From NCBI GenBank assembly GCA_000004985.1, contig GG738905.1: DNA of 64,000 bases, one strand, 5' to 3'. Shown one piece after another: positions 436 through 63,193 of the stretch (positions are counted from its first letter, which is position 1; each line of letters opens with the position of its first letter). The notes under the pieces were generated by a model. It worked only from the letters and a program-made list of their open reading frames with translations, did no database searches and was not told the origin of the DNA. The translations under genes were made by a program, and so were the position numbers. This DNA comes from Naegleria gruberi. Its lineage: Eukaryota.

Positions 436-1662
436 ATGATTGGTTACCACACGTATCATTACAATGCCAATGTGACGTTGAACTTTACAAAAAAAATGCA
501 ACAACAAGAAATCTTTCAAATTTTACCCAATGAATTGATCGGAGAAATTATCTGTGGCCACATTCATCATGTTGAACTAATTTTTTCGCTAAGAAATGTC
601 TGTCGCTACTGGAGAGGTATTTGTCATGAATTAATATGGGATCACTATCAAGAAACAATTTTAAATCTCAACAAGAGTTGTAAACAAGTTGAGGATTTGG
701 ATGATTTTCTAGATTCTAAAGAGGGAAGAAAATTCACCAAATATTTACTCCGAAAACAAGTTTATGAACTTGCTTGCAAATTATCAATTATTGGGTCAGG
801 AGATGGGGAAGGTAACAAGCAAATTATTGCCATGAAAGAAAAATGGGTTGATGAAGAATTGAGAATTTTAAAGGGTTACTTTGAAAGATATTCTGATTTA
901 CAAGAATCTCCAAATATTGCAATTGTGAAACCTCAACAACAACCATCATCGAAGGGCTTTTTTGGAGGGGCCTTGTCGTTTATTGGATCCTTCTTTTCAA
1001 GTAATACTCAATCAAACTCCCAATCAAATTCTCAATCAAATGCTCAATCAAATTCCCAATCAATTACCAGTAATGTTGTCAATAGTGCAACTCCAACTCA
1101 GAATTTACCTCCACCAACCCATGATTATCTCACTAAAGTACTATTGGATGGAGATTCTGGAAGTGGAAAGACTTCACTGCTCAACTGTTCCATGAATGGT
1201 TTGGTTGTGGAACAAAATGGCGCGTACTATCCTTCTATTGGCGTTGACTTTGCAATCAAAATGTTTCACTTTGGAGACACAACAAGAGTTAAACTTCAAC
1301 TGTGGGATCAATGTGGTCCAGAACGTTACAGATCTATCTCCATGTCGTTTTATAGAGGCGCTGCTACTGTTTTACTATTGCTTGATCCTAACTCTTACAA
1401 AGAATATGCCATAAAATCACTAGAGGAGAGGTTGAAATCTATCAAGAAGCATGCACCAAAGGCAGAAATAATTTTCATCACAACAAAGAAAGACAAGAAT
1501 CATGAGAGATGTATGTCAAATGAACAAGCAGATCAGTTTGCATTTGACAATTTTGGTGGAATGCATTTAGATATAACCAACACCCAATTAGAAGAACCAA
1601 AGAGAATTATTTGTTATAGCGCCTTACTCAAATATTTACTTTCCTCTAATATTTCTCCTTAA
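436..1662 (+). CDS. F-box-like N-terminus fused to a divergent Rab-like small GTPase; the likely real start is the Met at ~496 (MQQQEIF)
   Basis: N-terminal LPNELIGEIICG...VCRYWRGICHE resembles an F-box. The GTPase motifs are G1 GDSGSGKTS, G2 YYPSIGVDF, G3 WDQCGPERY (the catalytic Gln is replaced by Pro), G4 TKKD and G5 YSA. An internal SNSQSNSQSN low-complexity linker is present. Confidence 0.55.
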   Translation: MIGYHTYHYNANVTLNFTKKMQQQEIFQILPNELIGEIICGHIHHVELIFSLRNVCRYWRGICHELIWDHYQETILNLNKSCKQVEDLDDFLDSKEGRKFTKYLLRKQVYELACKLSIIGSGDGEGNKQIIAMKEKWVDEELRILKGYFERYSDLQESPNIAIVKPQQQPSSKGFFGGALSFIGSFFSSNTQSNSQSNSQSNAQSNSQSITSNVVNSATPTQNLPPPTHDYLTKVLLDGDSGSGKTSLLNCSMNGLVVEQNGAYYPSIGVDFAIKMFHFGDTTRVKLQLWDQCGPERYRSISMSFYRGAATVLLLLDPNSYKEYAIKSLEERLKSIKKHAPKAEIIFITTKKDKNHERCMSNEQADQFAFDNFGGMHLDITNTQLEEPKRIICYSALLKYLLSSNISP

Positions 1663-3319: not shown

Positions 3320-4640
3320 GTAAATCATGCAAGAACCAGTTCTTTGAGATTGAGAATATTGTATTGACAGAATCAAGTACGAAATTATGATAATAGTATT
3401 GGAAAGATGAGTTGATATTTGAATAGTAAATTGAAGTTTAGTTAGGGAAATCAGTTTTCTATCCAAGTTTGGAACCTTACATCCAACTTTTTTGAGCTTG
3501 TTCCAAATGAAAAACTATTCGAAATGGTTTAAATTAGCACCATGGATTGAACTATTCCATCCAACAAAAACAAAAAATGAAAGCAAATCTAATCTTTTCA
3601 ATTGCACTTCTACTTTTACTTGCAGTCCTCTCAGTTCAAGCAAATGACAGCTATCAAGCCAAACCTCCAGTCGTCGTTGTTGACAAGTATCACAAGCCAA
3701 AGCATTGTAAGAGAAAATGCTTAAAGCATAAGTGGATTAAGAAGTGTTTAAAACACAAACTCGTTGGTCAAAAGAAAGTCTGTGATCAATATGCCATTGT
3801 CGGAGCTGGTAAATGTCTTAAACATAAGAAATATTCCAAATGTGACAAGTATAGCAAGCCAACAAAGAAGTGTGTCTTGCATGCATACAAGATTGTTGGT
3901 TGTGCCAAGAAGAAGTACTGGAAAGTTTGTGATTCTTATGGAACAAAGAAGATTTGCATCAAGAAGGGTTACAAGAAATACTGTGCCAAACATAAGATTA
4001 TTAACAAGTGTTTCAAGAAGGGTGTTAAGAAGGTCTGTAAGAAATTCAAGAAGGTTCCAATCAAGAAATGTGAAAAGAAGAAGGTTTGCGACAAGTACAC
4101 TGTTGATTCCTACAATAAGAAGGTTTCCAAATGTAGATATGTTAAAAAATGTAAGATTGTTTCATGGGCAAAGAAATGTGCCAAGTATAAGAAGGTTAAA
4201 TATTGTAAGGAAAGAAAATCAGTTAAGAAATGTTGTCTCATTAAGAAGAAATACTGTGCCAAACATAAGACTATCAAGTTCTGTAAGCACAAGAAGATTC
4301 TTTCTAAATGTGTCAAATATCAAAAGAAGAAATATTGTGCCAAGACAATTGTCATTCCTCCAAGATGTATCAAGAAGAAGTATTATAAGAAGTGTTTGAA
4401 ACGTTCAAAGGGAAAGAAGATTTGTAAGAAATTTAAATTAGTTGGTGGAAAGAAGAAGTGTTGCAAGTCAATCAAAAAGAAGATTTGTATCAAGAGAAAG
4501 ACATGTAAGAAGTCATCAAAGCCAATCATCAAACCATCTTTGTAAATGATTATTTTCAAATGTTTCTAATACCTTAATAAAGCCAGAACCATTCTGCAAA
4601 CTCTTATTGCAAACAAATTTCAAGAAATGTTGGAAATCCT
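3320..4640. repeat. left arm of a ~1.3-kb inverted duplication; its partner is at ~41540..42905
   Basis: The reverse complement of 41540..42905 matches this segment. The match covers the gene and ~200 bp of flanks on each side, with a few indels in the flanks. Confidence 0.8.
3577..4545 (+). CDS. secreted, extremely Lys/Cys-rich basic protein (copy 1); the ORF is open from 3547
   Basis: A signal-peptide-like MKANLIFSIALLLLLAVLSVQA is followed by ~310 aa with about 30% Lys and ~38 regularly spaced Cys (KKC/CxK periodicity). A near-identical copy lies inverted at 41629..42600. Confidence 0.6.
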   Translation: MKANLIFSIALLLLLAVLSVQANDSYQAKPPVVVVDKYHKPKHCKRKCLKHKWIKKCLKHKLVGQKKVCDQYAIVGAGKCLKHKKYSKCDKYSKPTKKCVLHAYKIVGCAKKKYWKVCDSYGTKKICIKKGYKKYCAKHKIINKCFKKGVKKVCKKFKKVPIKKCEKKKVCDKYTVDSYNKKVSKCRYVKKCKIVSWAKKCAKYKKVKYCKERKSVKKCCLIKKKYCAKHKTIKFCKHKKILSKCVKYQKKKYCAKTIVIPPRCIKKKYYKKCLKRSKGKKICKKFKLVGGKKKCCKSIKKKICIKRKTCKKSSKPIIKPSL

Positions 4641-9626: not shown

Positions 9627-12600
9627 TTATAAATCTAAATTTTGATTTGTTGGCCCTATCATTACAGATGGCTTGTTGCAAGCTTTTTCCATGATTTCTT
9701 TAAACCATAGTTCTTCCCTTACATTTTCAAAATCCTTGTCTTCTCTCAATTTCTGTTCTGACACGATATCAATGCAAGCCATTAATTCATTCTTGCATTC
9801 TTCCTTCTTATTAAAAATAGCGTTTAAGCAGGCAAGATTGTAATGTGAGAGAGAAGTGTTTTTGAGACACTTGAATCCAACTTTTGCTCTTTCGTATAAA
9901 TATTCAAGATTAGAATTGACTTGCTCAGGTGTACCAATTGTAGATGTTACTGCTCTCTCTCCATTCTTGATTTCATTCAAAATAACCTCTGCCTTCATGA
10001 GGAAAGCTATGGCACATCTACAAATACATCCATCATTATTAGGCTCCAATATCATTGCTTGTTCATATTGAGCTATCGATTGTTCAAGTAATTGATATCT
10101 ATCCATACCCAGCTCTTCTTTCGACTCTTGAAGCAGCATATTACCATAATTGTTTCTAGCAATAACAAAATCTTTGATCTCAATGCATCTTCTAAATAAA
10201 TCACATGCAATATCTACAAGTCTTTTTCTTTCAATGTTGGTTTCCATCTCTTGTTCTCTAGTTAGTTTTAAGGAATGTTTTCTGACTTTTAAAAGATCAA
10301 TTTTTAACTTCTCATTAAAGCCCTTGTTATTAAGTGCATGGAAGTATTCAGGTTTGATATTGAGGCACTTGTCATAAAGCTTGGAGCTTTCATCAAGATA
10401 ACCATCAATCACTTTTCTTTCTCTTTCAAATTCATCATATGTTAATTCTTTCAAATCAGTAGATGTGTAAAAACCCGAAAGCAGTGAACAATATGGGAAA
10501 AAGTTTGAAAGAGGAAGAGGAGTCGATGAGAAACCAATACCATTGCAAGGAGTTTTTGGAGACTTGCTACCTGAGTCAACTTCCAAGTGAATATGTGCAC
10601 CTTTTTTGAGGATTGAAGTAGATATTTTCAGCCTTTTCTTGAGGTGACGAATCTTTTTTTCTGCCCAATCACAATAACTAATTCCATAGTCGTTATAAGT
10701 ACCAATGTGAGATTTGATCTTGAGAGCTTCTTCAAACTTTTCATGAGCCATTCTGAATAATCTATCACTCAAGTCCATGTCTGCAACCTTAATGGCAATG
10801 TCACTACAAGTACCAGCCCATAGTGTCAATACCTCATCATTCTTTGGTGCATTTTTCATGCAAACATCAAACTTTTCCATACATTGATTCAACATGAAGG
10901 CCAAATAAAGTTGTGCCTCATTTGTTTTCAAGTTGTGAACAAGCTTCTCCAATCTGATCAGAGATACACACCAATTTCTTGCAGCCGTCCAATTCTTGTC
11001 ATTATACATGAGACATGTTTCATAATTGTCCATACAGAGCATCCATAACATTCTCTTCTTGTAGACATTGTTGGCCTTGTCAGCTGCATTGAAGAGATTG
11101 TTTGCTTTTCTGAGGAATTGTGTCGACTTGTTCTTGATCTTTTCTTCCTCTTCCTTCTTTTTCCTTTCATCCTCTTCTTTTTGAAGCTTTTCTATTTCTT
11201 CTTTTGTTGGAGGTTTGATTTCTGTTTGCTCATTATTGGTGGCTTGGCTCTCTTTCTGAGATAGGTTACTTTGATCCTGCTTTTGATTATCGTTCTGTGT
11301 TGGTGGAGGCACAGCTGCTGTAGATGAGGAAGAAGGTGTTGCTGCATTAGTTGTTGTCTGATCAGTTGGTGGTGGAGCAGTAGGTGCTGTGTTAGTTGTG
11401 GGTGTTGCTGAATTGGATGGTTGTTCTGGTGGAGTTGGAGGTGGTAAGAAAGTCTTCTCATAGATGATTCTCTTCTTGTGAACATATTTCCATGTTACTT
11501 GTTCGCCATAGACTGCATCTTCATCATCTTTTTGGTCTGACTTTGAGCTGGAGGTCATTGAAATATTACGAAGCATATTCTTGTAATAAGAAAGGTCGTA
11601 CGCCTGTTTTTCATATCTACTCTTGTAAAGGTTAAACCACAAAAAGTCGTAATTACTCAATTCATTAAACTTCCTTGATGTGAGAGAAACATCAGCCAGG
11701 GCCTTTTCGTCAAGATATTCGAATATCTTTAGTAAAAGTTCTGTAAGAATGTAAGCATTTTCATTGTGTAACGAAGAGGCAACTTGTCTAATGCTACTAA
11801 TCCATTGTAGTGTTTCACTCTCATTGGTTGCTTCAAAAACAAGTCTATCCTCAGCTATTGCGTTGGCAGTAATTGATTCATATTTCATATCTGTACAGGT
11901 CATTTCTTCATCAACGTTTGGTGAATACGAAGGTGATGCATTCTCTGATCTACTTGTACCATCTGTTGGTGGAGATTTACAACTACTTTCCCAATGCATC
12001 TTTACACATTGAGTATCATTGTCGTTATTGATTGTTTTTTCATTCGATTTTTCTATGTACACACTAAAGGTGGTAGATGAAAGAGGATCTACCAAAACTT
12101 TACCAAGACAAACTCTATCATCCAAATAGATGGTACCAATCAGATGAGCAGAATACTTATCACAAATTGGTATCACATTGTTGGTAATAGCCTGGTTGGT
12201 ATTTGAAATATCACTCAAAGACTGCAGTAATTGTTGTTGTTGTTCTACTTGATTCTGATAGAAAGAGTTGTCAAAGAGTTTAGGAGTGAAAAGTTGTATC
12301 TTTTTAGAGCTCAGTATACAAATAACTGGCTCTTTCATTTGCAATCTGTCAATATGAGATTCTGGACAAACTTGGTAGTGGTGGAACATTAGATAGCCTT
12401 GCTTTCTAATGGTTTTGTTTGGTGTCTTCATCTTTTTCTTTCTCATTTCTAGAGGCTTGGTTTGATTGAGGTCTTGAGGAGATTCTACACTTGTATCCAT
12501 CGAGTCAGCATGGAGGGAGGTTTGTATTATTGTACAGTTATTATTGTTCTGATTATTTAGGGAGGATTGGAGAGAAAAGGTTTCAAGTGCTGATAAACGT

Positions 12601-12719
12601 CTCTTCAAGGGATGATTCAACACTAAAGATTTGATAACGTCTTGTTGTGAAGGAGATTGTCGAGTGATTGTCTGCTGATTATTATTGAGCAGGGACGATG
12701 AGCTTGGAGGAGGTGTCAT
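9627..12719 (-). CDS. large F-box-like protein (1030 aa) with low-complexity Pro/Thr/Gln tracts
   Basis: An F-box-like segment LTELLLKIFEYLDEKALADVSLTSRKFNELSNYDFLWFNLY lies mid-protein. It is a single long ORF, and the rest is not recognisable. Confidence 0.45.
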   Translation of the reverse strand: MTPPPSSSSLLNNNQQTITRQSPSQQDVIKSLVLNHPLKRRLSALETFSLQSSLNNQNNNNCTIIQTSLHADSMDTSVESPQDLNQTKPLEMRKKKMKTPNKTIRKQGYLMFHHYQVCPESHIDRLQMKEPVICILSSKKIQLFTPKLFDNSFYQNQVEQQQQLLQSLSDISNTNQAITNNVIPICDKYSAHLIGTIYLDDRVCLGKVLVDPLSSTTFSVYIEKSNEKTINNDNDTQCVKMHWESSCKSPPTDGTSRSENASPSYSPNVDEEMTCTDMKYESITANAIAEDRLVFEATNESETLQWISSIRQVASSLHNENAYILTELLLKIFEYLDEKALADVSLTSRKFNELSNYDFLWFNLYKSRYEKQAYDLSYYKNMLRNISMTSSSKSDQKDDEDAVYGEQVTWKYVHKKRIIYEKTFLPPPTPPEQPSNSATPTTNTAPTAPPPTDQTTTNAATPSSSSTAAVPPPTQNDNQKQDQSNLSQKESQATNNEQTEIKPPTKEEIEKLQKEEDERKKKEEEEKIKNKSTQFLRKANNLFNAADKANNVYKKRMLWMLCMDNYETCLMYNDKNWTAARNWCVSLIRLEKLVHNLKTNEAQLYLAFMLNQCMEKFDVCMKNAPKNDEVLTLWAGTCSDIAIKVADMDLSDRLFRMAHEKFEEALKIKSHIGTYNDYGISYCDWAEKKIRHLKKRLKISTSILKKGAHIHLEVDSGSKSPKTPCNGIGFSSTPLPLSNFFPYCSLLSGFYTSTDLKELTYDEFERERKVIDGYLDESSKLYDKCLNIKPEYFHALNNKGFNEKLKIDLLKVRKHSLKLTREQEMETNIERKRLVDIACDLFRRCIEIKDFVIARNNYGNMLLQESKEELGMDRYQLLEQSIAQYEQAMILEPNNDGCICRCAIAFLMKAEVILNEIKNGERAVTSTIGTPEQVNSNLEYLYERAKVGFKCLKNTSLSHYNLACLNAIFNKKEECKNELMACIDIVSEQKLREDKDFENVREELWFKEIMEKACNKPSVMIGPTNQNLDL

Positions 12720-32415: not shown

Positions 32416-33672
32416 ATGTCTACAACAACTAATTACACTGCTGAACAATATTCATTGAAAATCAATGGTCTTGAAAATCTTCCTCAAATCAATGAAACTA
32501 AATCTAATAGAGTCGATGAACTGACTAACATGATTTTGAATGAACTGAAAATTAATCAACTCTTTCCAAACGCTCAACTCAAAACTGCCATTCAATATGT
32601 TTCCACTGTCTTCCAACAATGTAAATTCCCAAACAATGACTATCATACTAAAGGAATCAAGGATGTTTGCTTCTGGACATGTCTGTGTTTCCCTGAACTT
32701 GATTCCACAACCCTCAATCTATATTCATTGATCATGTCCTACTTGTCTGTGGTTGATGATGCCTGTGATTCTGAAAAGGATATTGATGGTTTTTTAAGAG
32801 CTGAATTACAAACACATATTAATTGTTTGAATAATAATGAAAAATGTACAAACCAACAATCTAATCCATCTATTGAACTTGCTCGTTTCATTATTAGCCA
32901 AATCAAGAGTGTATTCAATTGTGAGCAATCCAATTATTTGATTCAGGGAATGGTTGAATTCTATGAACATTCCTATCAAATTGCCTCAATGTGGGCAAAT
33001 GACCAACATCCAACACTGGAACAATACATTCAATTGCGAGAATATGATTCATTGACAGATATGCTTCTCAAATTGAAGTTAGTCACCAACATGCCATCCC
33101 TTAATCTTGGCTTATCTAGATATTTCCAATTGTGTTGTCATTTATCTTCGATGATTAATGACATTTGTTCACTCCCAAAAGATTTACATTCATCCATCTC
33201 GAATAACTATGTTCTTCTCCTTAACAATCAAACAGTTAACATGGAATATGCCTTGACTAACTGTATCGAAGTATTGAAAGAAATGAAGAGTTTGGAACAG
33301 ACAGAATGTGAACAATACCATGATTTAGAATCAATGAAATCAATAGCAAGAGGATACGTTGGTTGGTGTTTCAAATCTCCTCGTTTCCAACATGCCAATC
33401 ACTACATTTCCTGTCTCTTGAAAGACAATTCATCAGCATCATGTTTCATCCTCCTCTTCGTGTATTACCACACAGAGAAAGGAAGACACTCCAATCACCT
33501 ACTTGGATGTAATCATGAGGAGACAAGCCTTCACCAGAGAAGTAAAATCAACAACAACAGCTACAACAACACCATCATCAGGAGAAGTAGTTGTAGACTT
33601 GAAGTCTCCAATCAGTCCGGGAAGAAACACTGCCATCTAAGAAGAAATTTGGATGAAGCAATCTTTTTGTAA
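32416..33672 (+). CDS. microbial-type class I terpene synthase-like protein (the C-terminal ~70 aa of the ORF are doubtful)
   Basis: An Asp-rich motif VVDDACD (DDxxD) and a downstream MINDICSLPKD (NDxxSxxxD/E, NSE/DTE-like) are spaced as in class I terpene cyclases. The low-complexity tail suggests a missed intron or frameshift. Confidence 0.4.
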   Translation: MSTTTNYTAEQYSLKINGLENLPQINETKSNRVDELTNMILNELKINQLFPNAQLKTAIQYVSTVFQQCKFPNNDYHTKGIKDVCFWTCLCFPELDSTTLNLYSLIMSYLSVVDDACDSEKDIDGFLRAELQTHINCLNNNEKCTNQQSNPSIELARFIISQIKSVFNCEQSNYLIQGMVEFYEHSYQIASMWANDQHPTLEQYIQLREYDSLTDMLLKLKLVTNMPSLNLGLSRYFQLCCHLSSMINDICSLPKDLHSSISNNYVLLLNNQTVNMEYALTNCIEVLKEMKSLEQTECEQYHDLESMKSIARGYVGWCFKSPRFQHANHYISCLLKDNSSASCFILLFVYYHTEKGRHSNHLLGCNHEETSLHQRSKINNNSYNNTIIRRSSCRLEVSNQSGKKHCHLRRNLDEAIFL

Positions 33673-45262: not shown

Positions 45263-48200
45263 TTGACAAGTTACGGAATGATAAAAAAATACTCATCAAA
45301 TGCACTCTATTTCGCGAATGAAACTTTTAAAAACGATAGAGATGCAATATTAACAGCAGTAAAAGAAAATGAGTTTGTACTCCAATATGCTAATGAAACA
45401 TTGAAGAATGATAGAGAATTTATTTTGGAAGCTGTAAAGATAAATGGAAAAGTACTCCAATACGCGAAGGAAATATTTAAAAGTGATAGGGAAATTGTGT
45501 TGGAAGCTGTTAAAGATGATGGATTAGCACTTGAATATGCCAATGAAATTTTAAAACATGATAGAGAAATTGGATTGGAGGCCGTAAAAGAAAATGCCGA
45601 AGCATTTCTTTATGTAAATAACACATTGAAAAAAGATAGGGGACTTGTATTGAAAGTTGTTAAACAAAATGGAATATTACTTCAATATGCAAATGAATTA
45701 TTGAAAAAGGATAGAGAAATTGTGTTGGAAGCTGTTAAAGATGATGGATTAGCACTTGAATATGCCAATGAAACATTAAAACAAGATAGAGAAATATCTT
45801 TAGAGGCTTCAAAACAAGAATTTTATAGAGGAATTATTTTAGAATCTAATATAAGATATACACCGAATCTTTTTTACGCTTTTAATAATTATATCGAATT
45901 TAAAAATTTGAGAAACGATAGAAAATTTATATTAGAAGCTGTAAAACAAAATGGATTAGCTCTTGAATATGCTAATGAAATAATGAAAAGAGATAGAGAA
46001 ATTGTATTGAAAGCTATTCAAGAAAATGGATTAGCTCTTGAATATGCAAACGAGACATTGAAAAAAGATAGAGAAATTGTGTTGAAAGCTGTAAAACAAA
46101 ATGGATTAGCACTTGAATATGTTAATGAAATAATGAAAAAAGATAGAGAAATTGTATTGAAATCTGTTAAGAAAAATGGAAAGCCGTTTCAATATGCAAA
46201 AGATACTTTGAAAAATGATAGAAAATTTATTTTGGAAGCTGTTCAACACAATAGAGATATATTTTTATATGTAAATGCAATATTGAAAATGGACAGAGGG
46301 TTTATTTTGCAAGTAATCAAAAAAAATAGAGATGTGCTTGAGTGTGCCGATACGAGTTCAGTTTATTACGACACAACCTTAAGTTATTTACTTTGCAATG
46401 ATACAGTTCTGGTTTATTTACTTTCTAAACATAATCCAGAATTATCCAGAAAGTTTTCACCACAATTAACTCAGATTATTGATGAATCCAACAATCTAAA
46501 CGCCAAACTATCCAAAGATGTGATTGAACTATACTCAAAACAGCTCAACTCTGAAAATGATTTGTATTATTGTATTGAATTACCAAATGTAGAGCCAGAC
46601 AAATCGTTAACCCCGCATTGGTTCTCTTTCAAACCAACCTATTCAGTAGAATTTATTGAAAAATTGGTTATATTTCAAATATTGAAAAAAGTACAAGAAA
46701 TGGAACCATCAAATGATATTTTCAACGGTGAAACTACTAACTATAATTTCTTTTGTTTCAAGTTGGATAAACTTCTGGAAGAAACTTTAATTCAACCAAA
46801 AACTGTCAAAGATTTGAGGAATACTGTTGAGAGTATTTCATCTAAATTCGATACATCATTTTACTCCAAAAAGGAAATCAAGTGCATCAGGTATTTTTTC
46901 ATAACATGGACAGAAAGTGACAAATCTTTTACTGACTACAGGAGGATATTGTCAAGATATAACGAAAAACATGGTGATCTGTCAAAAATATTCAAAGCTC
47001 TCAATAGATACTACAAATATTTCAATAAGAATTACGACTTTATTTCAATATTAGGAAACGGTGCAGAAGGGGCTGTTTTCAAAGTATTACACAGAGAAAG
47101 TAGAACGTTGATGGCTATCAAATTCAAATATGAAGTAGAAGATAGCGAAGAATCAACAAATGAAATTATTAACTTATTGAAACGAACAGATATGTGTGGA
47201 AAGATAAAATGTTTTGATTGTGGAATGATTGAAAGACATTTATATTCAGTAATGGAATTGGGAGAAGAATCTCTATCAGATTATATTCAGGCAAATATTG
47301 AAGTTTATAGAAATTCATCCATGATGACTAAAGAGAAATTAATTGAAATCCTGCGAATATTTATGCAAATATTAGAATCTGTTCAGTCCATCCATGATCA
47401 CAACATTTTACATGGAGATTTAGATCCGCAAAATATTGTCAAAGTTGGAGATCAATACAAACTAATTGATTTTGAAACTTCCAAAGTAATCAAGACAGGA
47501 AATTCAATTACAATTGCTCGTGGAAAGTTTGCATACATGTCTCCTGAAGTTTCACATGATAATTACACTGATGACATGTTTAAAAGAAATAATGATTCTA
47601 AATTAGCTCATAACATTGGAAATATTACAATCTCATGTGATATTTTTTCATTGGGATGTATTTTATTGAAATTATTAACACATTGTCCATTACAATTAGA
47701 TGAGCACTTTGTTAATGATTCTGATTTATCAAAATATAAGGATAATTTCATTTATTTCACAACCTATGGAAAGTATTTCTATACGGTTGTAACAACAAGT
47801 GAAGGGGAAACCAAATTACACTATGCCATCGAACAACTGATCAACAAATCAATTGATACAAATTATGGAGTGAACAATATATTAATCAGATGTATTATTA
47901 CAATGATTCAAAGAGATTCTTCCAAAAGATTGTTTTGTTATTCATACAAAACAACTCTTGAGAATGTAATTAAATTTTTGAATGGAGAAATTGAAATATC
48001 AAACATTGAGATGGACATCAAGCAGTATAAGGAAATAAAATCCTTGATGAGTTACTCTCGACTTTTGGAAGAAATCAACAAAGTGAATCAGAGAAATGAT
48101 TTCTTGAATGAAAAAATTAAACATCTTGAAGATGAAAACAACAAATTAAATCAGGAAATCAACAAATTACATCAGAGAAATGACATATTGATGGAAAATA

Positions 48201-48280
48201 ACAAATTGAATCAGGAAAATACAGAATTGCAAGAGAAAATTAAAATATTAGAGGAACAAATTAGAAAACTCCACTTTTAA
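45263..48280 (+). CDS. DUF4116-type repeat protein fused to an atypical protein kinase domain and a C-terminal coiled coil
   Basis: Roughly 14 tandem repeats of ~30 aa of the form LxYAxExLKxDREIVLEAVKxNGxAL. A kinase domain follows: GNGAEGAVFKV...AIKF, a catalytic loop HGDLDPQNIVKV, DFE in place of DFG, and MSPE. A heptad-rich tail KLNQEINKLHQRND ends the protein. Confidence 0.55.
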   Translation: MTSYGMIKKYSSNALYFANETFKNDRDAILTAVKENEFVLQYANETLKNDREFILEAVKINGKVLQYAKEIFKSDREIVLEAVKDDGLALEYANEILKHDREIGLEAVKENAEAFLYVNNTLKKDRGLVLKVVKQNGILLQYANELLKKDREIVLEAVKDDGLALEYANETLKQDREISLEASKQEFYRGIILESNIRYTPNLFYAFNNYIEFKNLRNDRKFILEAVKQNGLALEYANEIMKRDREIVLKAIQENGLALEYANETLKKDREIVLKAVKQNGLALEYVNEIMKKDREIVLKSVKKNGKPFQYAKDTLKNDRKFILEAVQHNRDIFLYVNAILKMDRGFILQVIKKNRDVLECADTSSVYYDTTLSYLLCNDTVLVYLLSKHNPELSRKFSPQLTQIIDESNNLNAKLSKDVIELYSKQLNSENDLYYCIELPNVEPDKSLTPHWFSFKPTYSVEFIEKLVIFQILKKVQEMEPSNDIFNGETTNYNFFCFKLDKLLEETLIQPKTVKDLRNTVESISSKFDTSFYSKKEIKCIRYFFITWTESDKSFTDYRRILSRYNEKHGDLSKIFKALNRYYKYFNKNYDFISILGNGAEGAVFKVLHRESRTLMAIKFKYEVEDSEESTNEIINLLKRTDMCGKIKCFDCGMIERHLYSVMELGEESLSDYIQANIEVYRNSSMMTKEKLIEILRIFMQILESVQSIHDHNILHGDLDPQNIVKVGDQYKLIDFETSKVIKTGNSITIARGKFAYMSPEVSHDNYTDDMFKRNNDSKLAHNIGNITISCDIFSLGCILLKLLTHCPLQLDEHFVNDSDLSKYKDNFIYFTTYGKYFYTVVTTSEGETKLHYAIEQLINKSIDTNYGVNNILIRCIITMIQRDSSKRLFCYSYKTTLENVIKFLNGEIEISNIEMDIKQYKEIKSLMSYSRLLEEINKVNQRNDFLNEKIKHLEDENNKLNQEINKLHQRNDILMENNKLNQENTELQEKIKILEEQIRKLHF

Positions 48281-60564: not shown

Positions 60565-63193
60565 TTACTTCTTTCTTGAACTCTTCATCTTGATACTAGT
60601 GAAAGCCATATCAGTAACAGTCATGGCAGTAATAACATTGTCAGCTCTCAAAGCTCCATCAGCAGAAACTGAAACAATTGAACTTTCAACATCAGTTGAC
60701 TTGACACTGAAAGTACCACTGACAACAGCAGTGCCATTAACAACAATACCTCCAATAGATGTGAAATCACCTCCTTGAACAATGATAGCAGCATTGGAGT
60801 GATTCAAATGAACAGTTCCATTAATTGTCAAGTTACCAGTGATGAGCAATGCATGATTCAATGTCAAGTTACCATTAACATGGGTTTCGCCATTGACAGT
60901 CAAAATGCTTCCAACTGTTGAGTTCAGGGTACCATTGACAGTTAAATTACCATTAATCAAGGTGGAGCATGGTAATGAAATGTTACCAATCATTTGGAGA
61001 GAACCATTGCTGGCAATGGATGAGTTATCCATTTCGAATGAACCATTTTGAGCCAAAGAACCATTCAATTCAAGAGTTTCATTACCCAATAAACTGCCAT
61101 TAATGAGCATGGAGCCGTTGACAGATAAGACACCCATTGACATGGATTTGAAAGTACCATTGACTGAGATAGTTCCATTAATTGAGGTATTGGATGGAAG
61201 AGACATGTTACCATCAAAGTTCATAGAACCATTAAGGTGAACAGTTTCGTTATCTTGGAAGAATGAACCATTATGAACCAAGGAACCATTCATATTGAAA
61301 TCAGTTTCATTTCCATCGAAAGAACCATTAATGAGCATGGAACCGTTGATAGACAATTGACCATCCATAGTGGAATTGATAGAACCATTAATTTGAAGAG
61401 TACCATTGATAGAATCCAATGAAGGGAGAGTCATGTTTCCTTCCATAGCCAAAGAACCATTTGAACTCATTGAAGAATTATCATGATAGAAAGAACCATT
61501 GTTTGCCAAAGTACCGTTCAATTCCAAAGAGTTGGTATAATTGCTAGAGAATGAACCATTAATGAGCATTGAACCATTAATAGACAATGTTCTGAAAGCA
61601 GTTGATCTTAAAGTACCATTGACTGAGATAGTTCCATTAATTGAGTTGTTAGATGGGAGAGTCATGTTACCGTCAATGGTAATGGAACCATTTGAACTCA
61701 TTGAAGAATTATCATGGACGAATGAACCATTGTTGGCCAAAGTACCGTTCAATTCCAATGAATTAGTTTGATTAGTGGAGAAACTGCCATTAATAAGCAT
61801 GGATCCATTGACAGACAAGACACCCATTGACATGGATTTGAAAGTACCATTCACTGAGATAGTTCCATTAATTGAGGTATTGGATGGAAGAGACATGTTA
61901 CCATCAAAGTTCATAGAACCATTAAGGTGGACAGTTTCGTTATCTTGGAAGAATGAACCATTATGAACCAAGGAACCATTCATATTGAAATCAGTTTCGT
62001 TTCCATTGAAAGAACCGTTCATAACCATCGAACCATTGATGCTCAAATCACCACTGATTGAGGAGTTAACAGTACCATTAACTTGAAGAGTACCATTGAA
62101 TTCGTCCATGGAAGGAAGAGTCAAGTTACCTTGAATGGTCAAAGAACCATTAGTGTTCAAAGAATTGTTAGAATAGACGAAACTGCCGTTATGACCCAAT
62201 GTACCATTCAATTCGAAAGCATTAACTTCATCAGCATCGAATGAACCATTAATAAAGAGAGATCCATTAGAGAACCAAGTTGAGTTGGAAATCATTAAGG
62301 AACCATTTGAAGCAATGCTACCATTAACTTGCATCAATCCGTGATCAATTGAAGCGTTGATGAATGATGAACCATTGACAATCAACGAGTCATTAATCAT
62401 GGCAACAATTCCACTAGCATTGAAAACACCTTCAATAGTCAAATTACCAACTGTCATGGAACCATCGGTGTGAGCAATACTTCCATTAACATGCAAACTA
62501 TGAGTTGAGTTGAGTGTGAAATTACCATTAGTGACCAAGGTACCATTCAAGATGGAACTATTAGATGAGGTAGTAGTGTAAAAACCCTTCATGGTGGCAT
62601 TTCCATTACTATCAGAGAAGATGGTTGTTTCACTTGCGTTTTGTGGAGCAACTGGGAGAACAATTGGAGCAACTGGAGTAACAGGTGTAACAACAGGAGG
62701 AACGACTGGCTTAACTGGTGGAATAATTGGTTTAGGATTGATTGGAGCAGTATCATTGCACAACTTTAAGTGATCTCTGCAAATCAAGGTCTTGATATTC
62801 TTATTCTTATTCTTGCCTTGTTGCATAGTTTTCAAGGCATTATCAAGAGTGGAACAGAAATTATGTCTGTAATGATTACAAAGTGAAAGAACAGATCCAG
62901 TTTTAACTGTTATATATGCAATAACATGAAAATGAACGAAGCATTGTAGATGTATTAAGGGAATTAAGTGAGTATTTGCAAACACATGTGATAGTTATTA
63001 TATAATATGTAACGAGTTCAATGTTCATTCAAAAAGAAATACCTTACTTACTCTTATCGGTAGCAACCATATCAAAGCTAGTTTTACAGAATGTGCATGG
63101 ATTAGCTGAGAAACCATAGACAGTACAAGCGATGGCGCTCAACAAGACCACCAATGTGATAATCAATTGCTTCTTTTGCATTTTTTCTTTCAT
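60565..63193 (-). CDS. secreted Asn-rich repeat glycoprotein (NGS/NGT sequon-rich), 2 exons
   Basis: Exon 1 (63193..63052) encodes MKEKMQKKQLIITLVVLLSAIACTVYGFSANPCTFCKTSFDMVATDK, a signal peptide. A 145-bp intron (GTAAGT..AACAG) follows. Exon 2 encodes a Cys-containing head, a Pro/Val linker (PVKPVVPPVVTPVTPVAPIVLP) and then ~650 aa of periodic N-G-S/T units (>80 sequons). Two stretches of ~75 aa are near-identical: NETDFNMNGSLVHNGSFFQDNETVHLNGSMNFDGNMSLPSNTSINGTISVNGTFKSMSMGVLSVNGSMLINGS. Confidence 0.55.

Follow-up and report, generated by a model that had tools for sequence, protein, structure and literature searches.

What might a protein do in which an F-box stands in front of a small GTPase whose catalytic glutamine has been replaced? 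This question is raised by a gene at positions 496..1662 (plus strand) of a 64,000-nucleotide stretch of Naegleria gruberi nuclear DNA (contig GG738905.1; assembly GCA_000004985.1), called here the window, with a GC content of about 32-36%. The gene is a complete, single and uninterrupted open reading frame (ORF) of 388 codons plus stop, without internal stop or intron, and its product is 100% identical to the N. gruberi "small GTPase" XP_002671413.1 (EFC38669.1; UniProt D2VWR7). The protein consists, in this order, of an F-box, a conserved helical linker, a disordered spacer and a Rab-like G domain. Most likely, with a probability of roughly 0.55, it is a substrate receptor of a Skp1-Cul1-F-box (SCF) ubiquitin ligase, in which a Rab-like domain predicted to be locked with GTP would serve as the binding module. 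This one estimate covers both the mechanism and the analogy that goes with it, namely a function akin to that of Rab40 or RhoBTB with their cullin-RING ligases (CRL5 and CRL3, respectively) and built on an F-box and CRL1.

The Rab-like G domain (aa 208-382; 1117..1641) was recognized by Pfam, by comparison with the PDB, in AlphaFold2 (AF2) models and by Foldseek. Its Pfam matches were Ras (E 1.4e-19, aa 214-351) and Roc (E 4e-18), and the best solved relatives in an HMMER search of the PDB were Rab8A, Rab11A and Rab1B (E ~1e-21). In the AF2 model of the full-length protein, the domain had a predicted local distance difference test score (pLDDT) of 86-94, and Foldseek aligned its model to Rab8, Rab4, Rab1 and Rab43 with a target template modelling score (TM-score) of 0.80-0.85 over about 178 columns, so that the whole Rab fold is present, last helix included. 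Profile-profile comparison with hhalign gave a score of 227 (E 3e-34) for the Naegleria G domain against a Rab profile. Moreover, the alignment to Rab8A revealed the strings SIGVDF, KLQLWD, RYRSIS and FYRGA, which are like the RabF motifs (IGVDF, KLQIWD, RFRSIT and YYRGA) reportedly defined by Pereira-Leal and Seabra in 2000. Judged by these features, the G domain is clearly Rab-derived.

The positions of the nucleotide-binding and catalytic motifs were set by HMMER alignment to Rab8A, and all motif counts given below are from an alignment of 11 relatives from N. gruberi, N. lovaniensis and N. fowleri, including the corrected N. gruberi models of Herman et al. (2021). The G1 motif or P-loop, GDSGSGKT (aa 219-226; 1150..1173), is intact, and GxxxxGK[TS] is kept in all 11 relatives. 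In switch I, where Rab8A reads TIGIDF, Ser247 (1234..1236) replaces the conserved Thr; this position is variable in the family (T in five members, S in two, P in two and C in one, with the divergent XP_002675157 being ambiguous). The G3 motif in switch II, WDQCGPERY (aa 270-278; 1303..1329), aligns on WDTAGQERF of Rab8A, with Pro275 (1318-1320) at the position of the catalytic Gln. Not one of the 11 relatives has Gln there: eight have Pro, two Gly and one Asn. The G4 motif TKKD (aa 330-333; 1483..1494) lies on NKCD of Rab, with Asn changed to Thr and the Lys and Asp of guanine specificity kept. In the G5 loop, ITN (aa 360-362; 1573..1581) takes the place of [ST]AK of Rab after the predicted beta-6; the AF2 model has a beta strand at aa 357-359 and a helix at aa 366-382, and the loop between them reads ITNT as against TSAK in Rab. 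ITN is found in 10/10 relatives whose sequence reaches G5.

An earlier first-pass annotation of the sequence had read WDQCGPERY and TKKD exactly in this way, and re-alignment did not restore the catalytic Gln, Pro275 staying at the catalytic position. On the other hand, it had counted TKKD among the defects. We do not read TKKD as a lesion because it retains Lys and Asp, and because all 11 relatives have T[KR]xD. Guanine specificity comes from the K and D of NKxD, and Rac1, a normal GTPase, carries TKLD.

The G domain is followed by six residues only. This tail, SSNISP plus stop (1642..1662), ends the protein as ...LLKYLLSSNISP and contains no Cys, thus no CC, CXC or CaaX prenylation signal. 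None of the 11 relatives ends in such a motif either (P0129 has one non-terminal Cys, ...SSCHFIEEI). Among the features of the Rab family, XP_002671413.1 lacks the catalytic Gln of DTAGQE and the C-terminal prenylation motif, and its G4 departs from NKxD in the first residue.

A word-indexed search with the single sequence found three N. gruberi paralogues only, and the relatives of N. lovaniensis and N. fowleri were missed. A search with the family profile recovered full-length F-box-linker-G proteins from N. lovaniensis (P0127 and P0129, encoded by the adjacent genes C9374_003205 and C9374_003204) and from N. fowleri (P0128), so the same fusion exists in orthologues of two other species; full-length matches to the full-length family profile were confined to N. 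gruberi, N. lovaniensis and N. fowleri. The fusion layout is also seen in the corrected N. gruberi gene models, of which P0003 and P0004, short in their uncorrected form, carry the N-terminal extension (Herman et al., 2021, Table S8), and the N-terminal extension of XP_002671413.1 aligns over its full length with members flagged for an F-box. These comparisons place XP_002671413.1 in a clade of Rab-derived proteins that is restricted to Naegleria and evolves by birth and death of genes.

Overall identity in this family is only 35-55%, and the few columns that do not vary include those of the P-loop, the DxxG Gly, TKxD and the G5 loop. This pattern bears on a second explanation, in which the G domain is a pseudo-GTPase that binds no nucleotide and provides an F-box protein only with a fixed fold for protein binding. 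The replacement of Gln by Pro, the variable switch-I Thr (S, C or P in some members) and the change of SAK to TNT in G5 would fit it. However, GxxxxGK[TS], the Gly of DxxG and T[KR]xD are kept in all relatives at this level of divergence, whereas nucleotide motifs no longer in use are expected to decay, as NKxD did in the trypanosome F-box-GTPase TbFRP (VCGL). The conservation pattern thus argues for a nucleotide-binding, hydrolysis-dead domain over a decayed one, and we regard the pseudo-GTPase as unlikely. The first-pass annotation had left the choice between a GTP-locked protein and a pseudo-GTPase; the second is the less likely of the two.

Could the odd motifs instead be the marks of a recent duplicate on its way to a pseudogene? 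A metagenome contig (L002) carries a 99%-identical allele with two synonymous and three non-synonymous differences from the ORF of the window, five differences in all being too few for measuring selection. The same transglutaminase-like neighbour lies downstream in both. An upstream in-frame ATG at 436 of the window is TAG in this allele, so ATG 496 was taken as the start. An annotation artefact that fused two genes was ruled out, the N. gruberi ORF being continuous in the two strains. The low-complexity S/N/Q spacer between linker and G domain (aa 168-207; 997..1116; AF2 pLDDT < 50), the length of which differs among the paralogues, contains a 12-nucleotide tandem repeat, CAATCAAATTCC, in 4.6 copies at 1009-1063 (Tandem Repeats Finder), which lies within the ORF and encodes (QSNS)n. 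The three non-synonymous and two synonymous differences, the fact that the repeat expansion is restricted to this paralogue and the disrupted copies reported in these clades (Herman et al., 2021) would suit a non-functional member of a birth-and-death family. Against this, the ORF is intact in the two strains, Table S8 of the same study gives no pseudogene flag, and all three amino acid differences sit in a variable part of the linker. Moreover, since the odd motifs are common to orthologues in two other species, they are ancestral and fixed features of the clade, not decay. Such a fate is therefore very improbable for this gene. The copy number of the repeat is equal in the metagenome allele.

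The F-box lies at aa 6-50 (IFQILPNELIGEIICGHIHHVELIFSLRNVCRYWRGICHELIWDH; 511..645). XP_002671413.1 alone matched the Pfam F-box-like model PF12937 with 20-21 bits (E 2e-4 to 6e-4), under the gathering cut-off of 24.3 bits, and because of this sub-threshold score the assignment rests on the family. The paralogue P0002, with 54% identity to XP_002671413.1 over aa 1-100, clears both F-box models (PF00646, 30.7 bits; PF12937, 24.8 bits). Six of six N-termini in the family matched PF12937 (best E 3.9e-6) and five of six matched PF00646 (best E 9.2e-8). When a six-sequence family profile was compared with the PDB, all six matches at E <= 1 were F-boxes (FBXL17, FBXW7, Skp2 and FBXO44; best E 0.028, non-significant), as were three of the four matches of a two-sequence profile (best E 0.01, also non-significant). 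These F-box matches were in the correct register, LP..L...I......L......VC..WR. The AF2 model of the full-length protein has three short helices over this region at low confidence. The two domains of the first-pass annotation, F-box and Rab-like G domain in one protein, are hence both borne out by Pfam (Ras clearly, the F-box through family members above the cut-offs), the PDB and AF2.

The F-box is followed by a family-specific helical linker (aa 51-135; 646..900), which is conserved in 11/11 relatives with the motifs G[RQ][KR]F.K..LRK and W[VL]D.EL.ILK.[YF]F. In the full-length AF2 model its pLDDT was 73-89 for aa 41-100 and 111-130, and the predicted TM-score (pTM) of the whole protein was 0.72. 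Further downstream, a hydrophobic motif, FFGGALSFIGSFF (aa 155-167; 958..996), is also found in all 11 relatives; AF2 predicted a short helix there (aa 157-167) with low confidence. An exhaustive search of 1.84 billion proteins was done with a profile of the 91 linker positions only, the F-box columns having been dropped since two of the four rows had no F-box. It gave no credible homologue of the linker outside Naegleria and recovered the N. lovaniensis protein P0123. The repeat proteins P0121, P0122 and P0124 matched "W.DEEL.ILK" by chance and were rejected as linker homologues.

The P0123 locus is peculiar in itself. In N. lovaniensis PYSW02000001.1 (L001:4001-6019), the annotation has two genes on the same strand with 674 bp between them, one an F-box/linker ORF (P0123, 229 aa) and the other encoding a Rab-like G domain; this is the third N. 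lovaniensis locus of the family. The G-domain gene has WDQFGPGRF, GTKAD and LEITN. The start annotated for this gene, 5273, and the homologous exon MQEYDYLFKALLEG (5364) are in different frames, so that the model looks wrong. An interval from GT(4602) to AG(5361) would join both ORFs in frame, which is speculative. The arrangement may reflect a split gene, a long intron or a natural fission.

In the SCF-receptor model that we prefer, the F-box would dock the protein on Skp1-Cul1-Rbx1, as predicted from the motif; F-boxes bind Skp1. The G domain would still bind guanine nucleotide, given how strictly the family keeps the P-loop, T[KR]xD, the G5 loop and the Gly of DxxG. In Ras and Rab, the water for hydrolysis is positioned by Gln61 and Gln67, respectively, and hydrolysis is crippled when these residues are replaced. 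GTP hydrolysis by XP_002671413.1, either intrinsic or with a TBC-type GTPase-activating protein (GAP), would be inefficient because its catalytic Gln is Pro. The domain would then stay constitutively in one nucleotide state and take the place of the WD40 or leucine-rich repeats of ordinary F-box proteins as the module for partners or substrates. The position C-terminal to the F-box, where F-box proteins carry their interaction domain, is indeed filled by the G domain, which would then be the part that binds substrates. Having no prenyl anchor, the protein would not be a membrane-cycling Rab and would be soluble, and it would be regulated through its abundance and turnover instead of a cycle of GAP and guanine nucleotide exchange factor (GEF). 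The first-pass annotation had suggested a substrate-recognition role in an SCF ligase. This idea is plausible and the same as the published "GTPase-dependent ubiquitination" (Herman et al., 2021).

Several points weigh against the SCF-receptor model. On the side of the F-box, the score of XP_002671413.1 itself falls under Pfam's 24.3-bit cut-off, aa 8-36 reach an AF2 confidence of only about 50, an AF2 model of the N-terminal 207 residues alone is unusable (pLDDT 41), and there is a one-residue insertion relative to the paralogues (IICGH vs IL-SH). On the side of the G domain, nucleotide affinity or Mg2+ coordination may be weak because the switch-I Thr varies in the family and G5 has the non-canonical TNT for SAK. 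The Q61P mutant of Ras, described by Der et al. in 1986, is said to be GTPase-impaired and yet non-transforming; for this reason, Pro275 may also distort switch II and not simply lock the active state. Finally, individual members of the family may be drifting, since disrupted copies have been reported in these clades (PMC8296547).

Another explanation keeps the hydrolysis-dead GTPase and changes the task of the F-box. The G domain would be a signalling payload, and the F-box would mainly bring the protein itself to SCF for auto-ubiquitination, such that the GTPase is switched off by degradation instead of hydrolysis. Auto-ubiquitination is common among F-box proteins, and turnover is known to regulate atypical Rho proteins that are hydrolysis-dead. 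The loss of the catalytic Gln throughout the family is in line with this, as is TbFRP, which is also an F-box-GTPase without Gln (FDISGHPRF) and whose authors tie the F-box to rapid turnover (PMC3593210). However, the explanation leaves the conservation of an 85-aa helical linker and its predicted defined packing (pTM 0.72) without a reason, and it is compatible with the receptor model rather than exclusive of it. As the main role of the protein, we consider it possible but doubtful.

The receptor model has an experimental precedent in Rab40b and Rab40c, Rab proteins that act as cullin-ligase receptors with Cul5 (PMC8129794; PMC9070665). Like XP_002671413.1, Rab40a/b/c have a Rab-type G domain covalently joined to a cullin-adaptor box, and the GTPase is the receptor of a CRL (PMC8129794; PMC9070665; PMC10509765). 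The box is different, however: Rab40 has a C-terminal SOCS box for ElonginBC/Cul5, whereas the Naegleria protein has an N-terminal F-box for Skp1/Cul1. Pfam gave no SOCS box match in XP_002671413.1, which has six residues after the G domain. Rab40 keeps its catalytic Gln and is prenylated. A second comparison is RhoBTB, in which an atypical small-GTPase domain, regarded as non-cycling, is fused to an adaptor module for Cul3. It differs in belonging to the Rho family with BTB and Cul3, in contrast to the Rab family with F-box and Cul1 in our case. RhoBTB is also present in Naegleria (PMC8296547).

A similar architecture elsewhere is that of TbFRP (Tb927.7.3790), a FYVE-F-box-Ras-like GTPase found in Euglenozoa only, for which a link to ubiquitin-dependent turnover was proposed (PMC3593210). 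In the supplementary alignment of that study, the FRPs have neither the catalytic Gln (FDISGHPRF, DISGEPRY; D[IL]SGxxR[FY]) nor NKxD nor CaaX. TbFRP and XP_002671413.1 thus share an F-box upstream of a Rab-related G domain, a G3 without the catalytic Gln and the absence of a prenylation motif. On the other hand, FRP has an N-terminal FYVE domain that binds phosphatidylinositol 3-phosphate and has lost NKxD, whereas the Naegleria protein has no FYVE (no Pfam match at E <= 1, the protein beginning five residues before the F-box), retains TKxD and differs in its linker.

As members of Discoba, Naegleria and Euglenozoa raise the separate evolutionary question whether an F-box-GTPase was ancestral to Discoba, with FYVE lost in Naegleria or gained in Euglenozoa. 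The same order of F-box and GTPase and the shared absence of CaaX and Gln would be expected of such orthologues. We compared G domains by hhalign using ten FRP sequences that were retyped from the machine-read supplementary alignment and contain errors, and each G domain was closer to ordinary Rabs (227 for Naegleria and 121 for FRP) than to the other (score 63, E 3e-9). The N-termini aligned over the generic F-box only (E 0.013, probability 3%), and no similarity of the linkers was found by profile-profile comparison. The FRP authors found no orthologue in N. gruberi, either (PMC3593210). Since each G domain scores higher against Rabs and the linkers show no similarity, specific homology to TbFRP was rejected, the similarity being that of generic Ras and F-box; FRP is an analogue, a specific relationship with which is not demonstrable, and orthology appears quite improbable.

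Apart from this family, another Naegleria F-box-Rab-like protein, XP_002677491.1, is also without the catalytic Gln (WDSGGNERF; PMC8296547, Table S8). Together with TbFRP, it suggests that loss of hydrolysis may be a general correlate of the fusion of a small GTPase with an F-box.

How much of this was known? Both the architecture and the gene have been known since 2021, when the Ras superfamily of Naegleria was re-annotated (Herman et al., 2021, BMC Biol 19:142; PMC8296547, Supplementary Material 4 and Table S8). These authors described Naegleria-specific Rab-like clades with N-terminal F-boxes, the F-box being the commonest extra domain on Ras-superfamily GTPases of Naegleria, and reported birth-and-death evolution with disrupted copies in their subgroups. 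They proposed "GTPase-dependent ubiquitination", yet with "no specific functional prediction". The architecture that the first-pass annotation called unusual is thus unusual for eukaryotes generally, but not in Naegleria, where it belongs to a family already described. XP_002671413.1 belongs to these clades, sharing the N-terminal F-box extension and having no relatives outside Naegleria; of the three subgroups that were published, a CaaX motif is present in one and absent from that of XP_002671413.1. In Table S8 its row reads "Rab" with the cell for additional domains empty and no pseudogene flag, beside the F-box-flagged paralogues XP_002677004.1 (P0002) and XP_002670359.1. The catalytic residues, the loss of Gln throughout the family and the conservation of TKxD and ITN are not discussed in PMC8296547. 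To this description our analysis adds an F-box for the unflagged XP_002671413.1, a subgroup that across three species never has the catalytic Gln (usually Pro) and yet keeps the P-loop, TKxD and the invariant ITN, and the absence of a specific relationship to the trypanosome FRP.

If the SCF-receptor model is true, Naegleria has many receptors of cullin-RING ligases that recognize their targets with small-GTPase domains in a fixed nucleotide state, a logic shared with Rab40-CRL5 and RhoBTB-CRL3, each of separate origin. Naegleria would then be a natural system for the coupling of nucleotide state to ubiquitination, and the unusually large number of Ras-superfamily members in amoebae might be partly explained in this way. 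A more speculative extension, to which we give little probability, is that these proteins are Rab decoys on a ubiquitin ligase. Soluble and hydrolysis-dead, each would mimic an active GTPase of the Rab1/Rab8 type and deliver the binders of active Rabs that it captures to SCF for ubiquitination. The targets could be endogenous effectors or GAPs, or effectors by which intracellular bacteria that infect Naegleria, for instance Legionella, act on Rabs. A role in such an arms race would be compatible with the rapid birth-and-death expansion, the restriction to one genus, the loss of Gln with nucleotide motifs kept and the loss of the membrane anchor.

Some other genes of the window deserve a brief description. 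About 8 kb from the XP_002671413.1 gene lies a second F-box gene, an ORF of 1030 aa at 9630-12719 (minus strand), in which an internal F-box-like domain (aa 326-366, E 2.5e-10) was the sole Pfam assignment. At 3547-4545 (plus strand), a 332-aa ORF with a hydrophobic N-terminus and no Pfam match is very rich in Lys and Cys, with repeats like CxKHK and KKYCAKHK. The ORF at 32416-33669 (plus strand) has the C-terminal metal-binding domain of terpene synthase family 2 (E 2e-12), a terpene synthase of microbial type in an amoeba. Bactofilin is mainly a bacterial cytoskeletal fold, and such a domain (PF04519, E 2e-12) forms the C-terminus of an 806-aa ORF at 60568-62985 (minus strand). Finally, in a 1005-aa ORF at 45263-48277 (plus strand), eight DUF4116 repeats (E 5e-103) precede a protein kinase domain.

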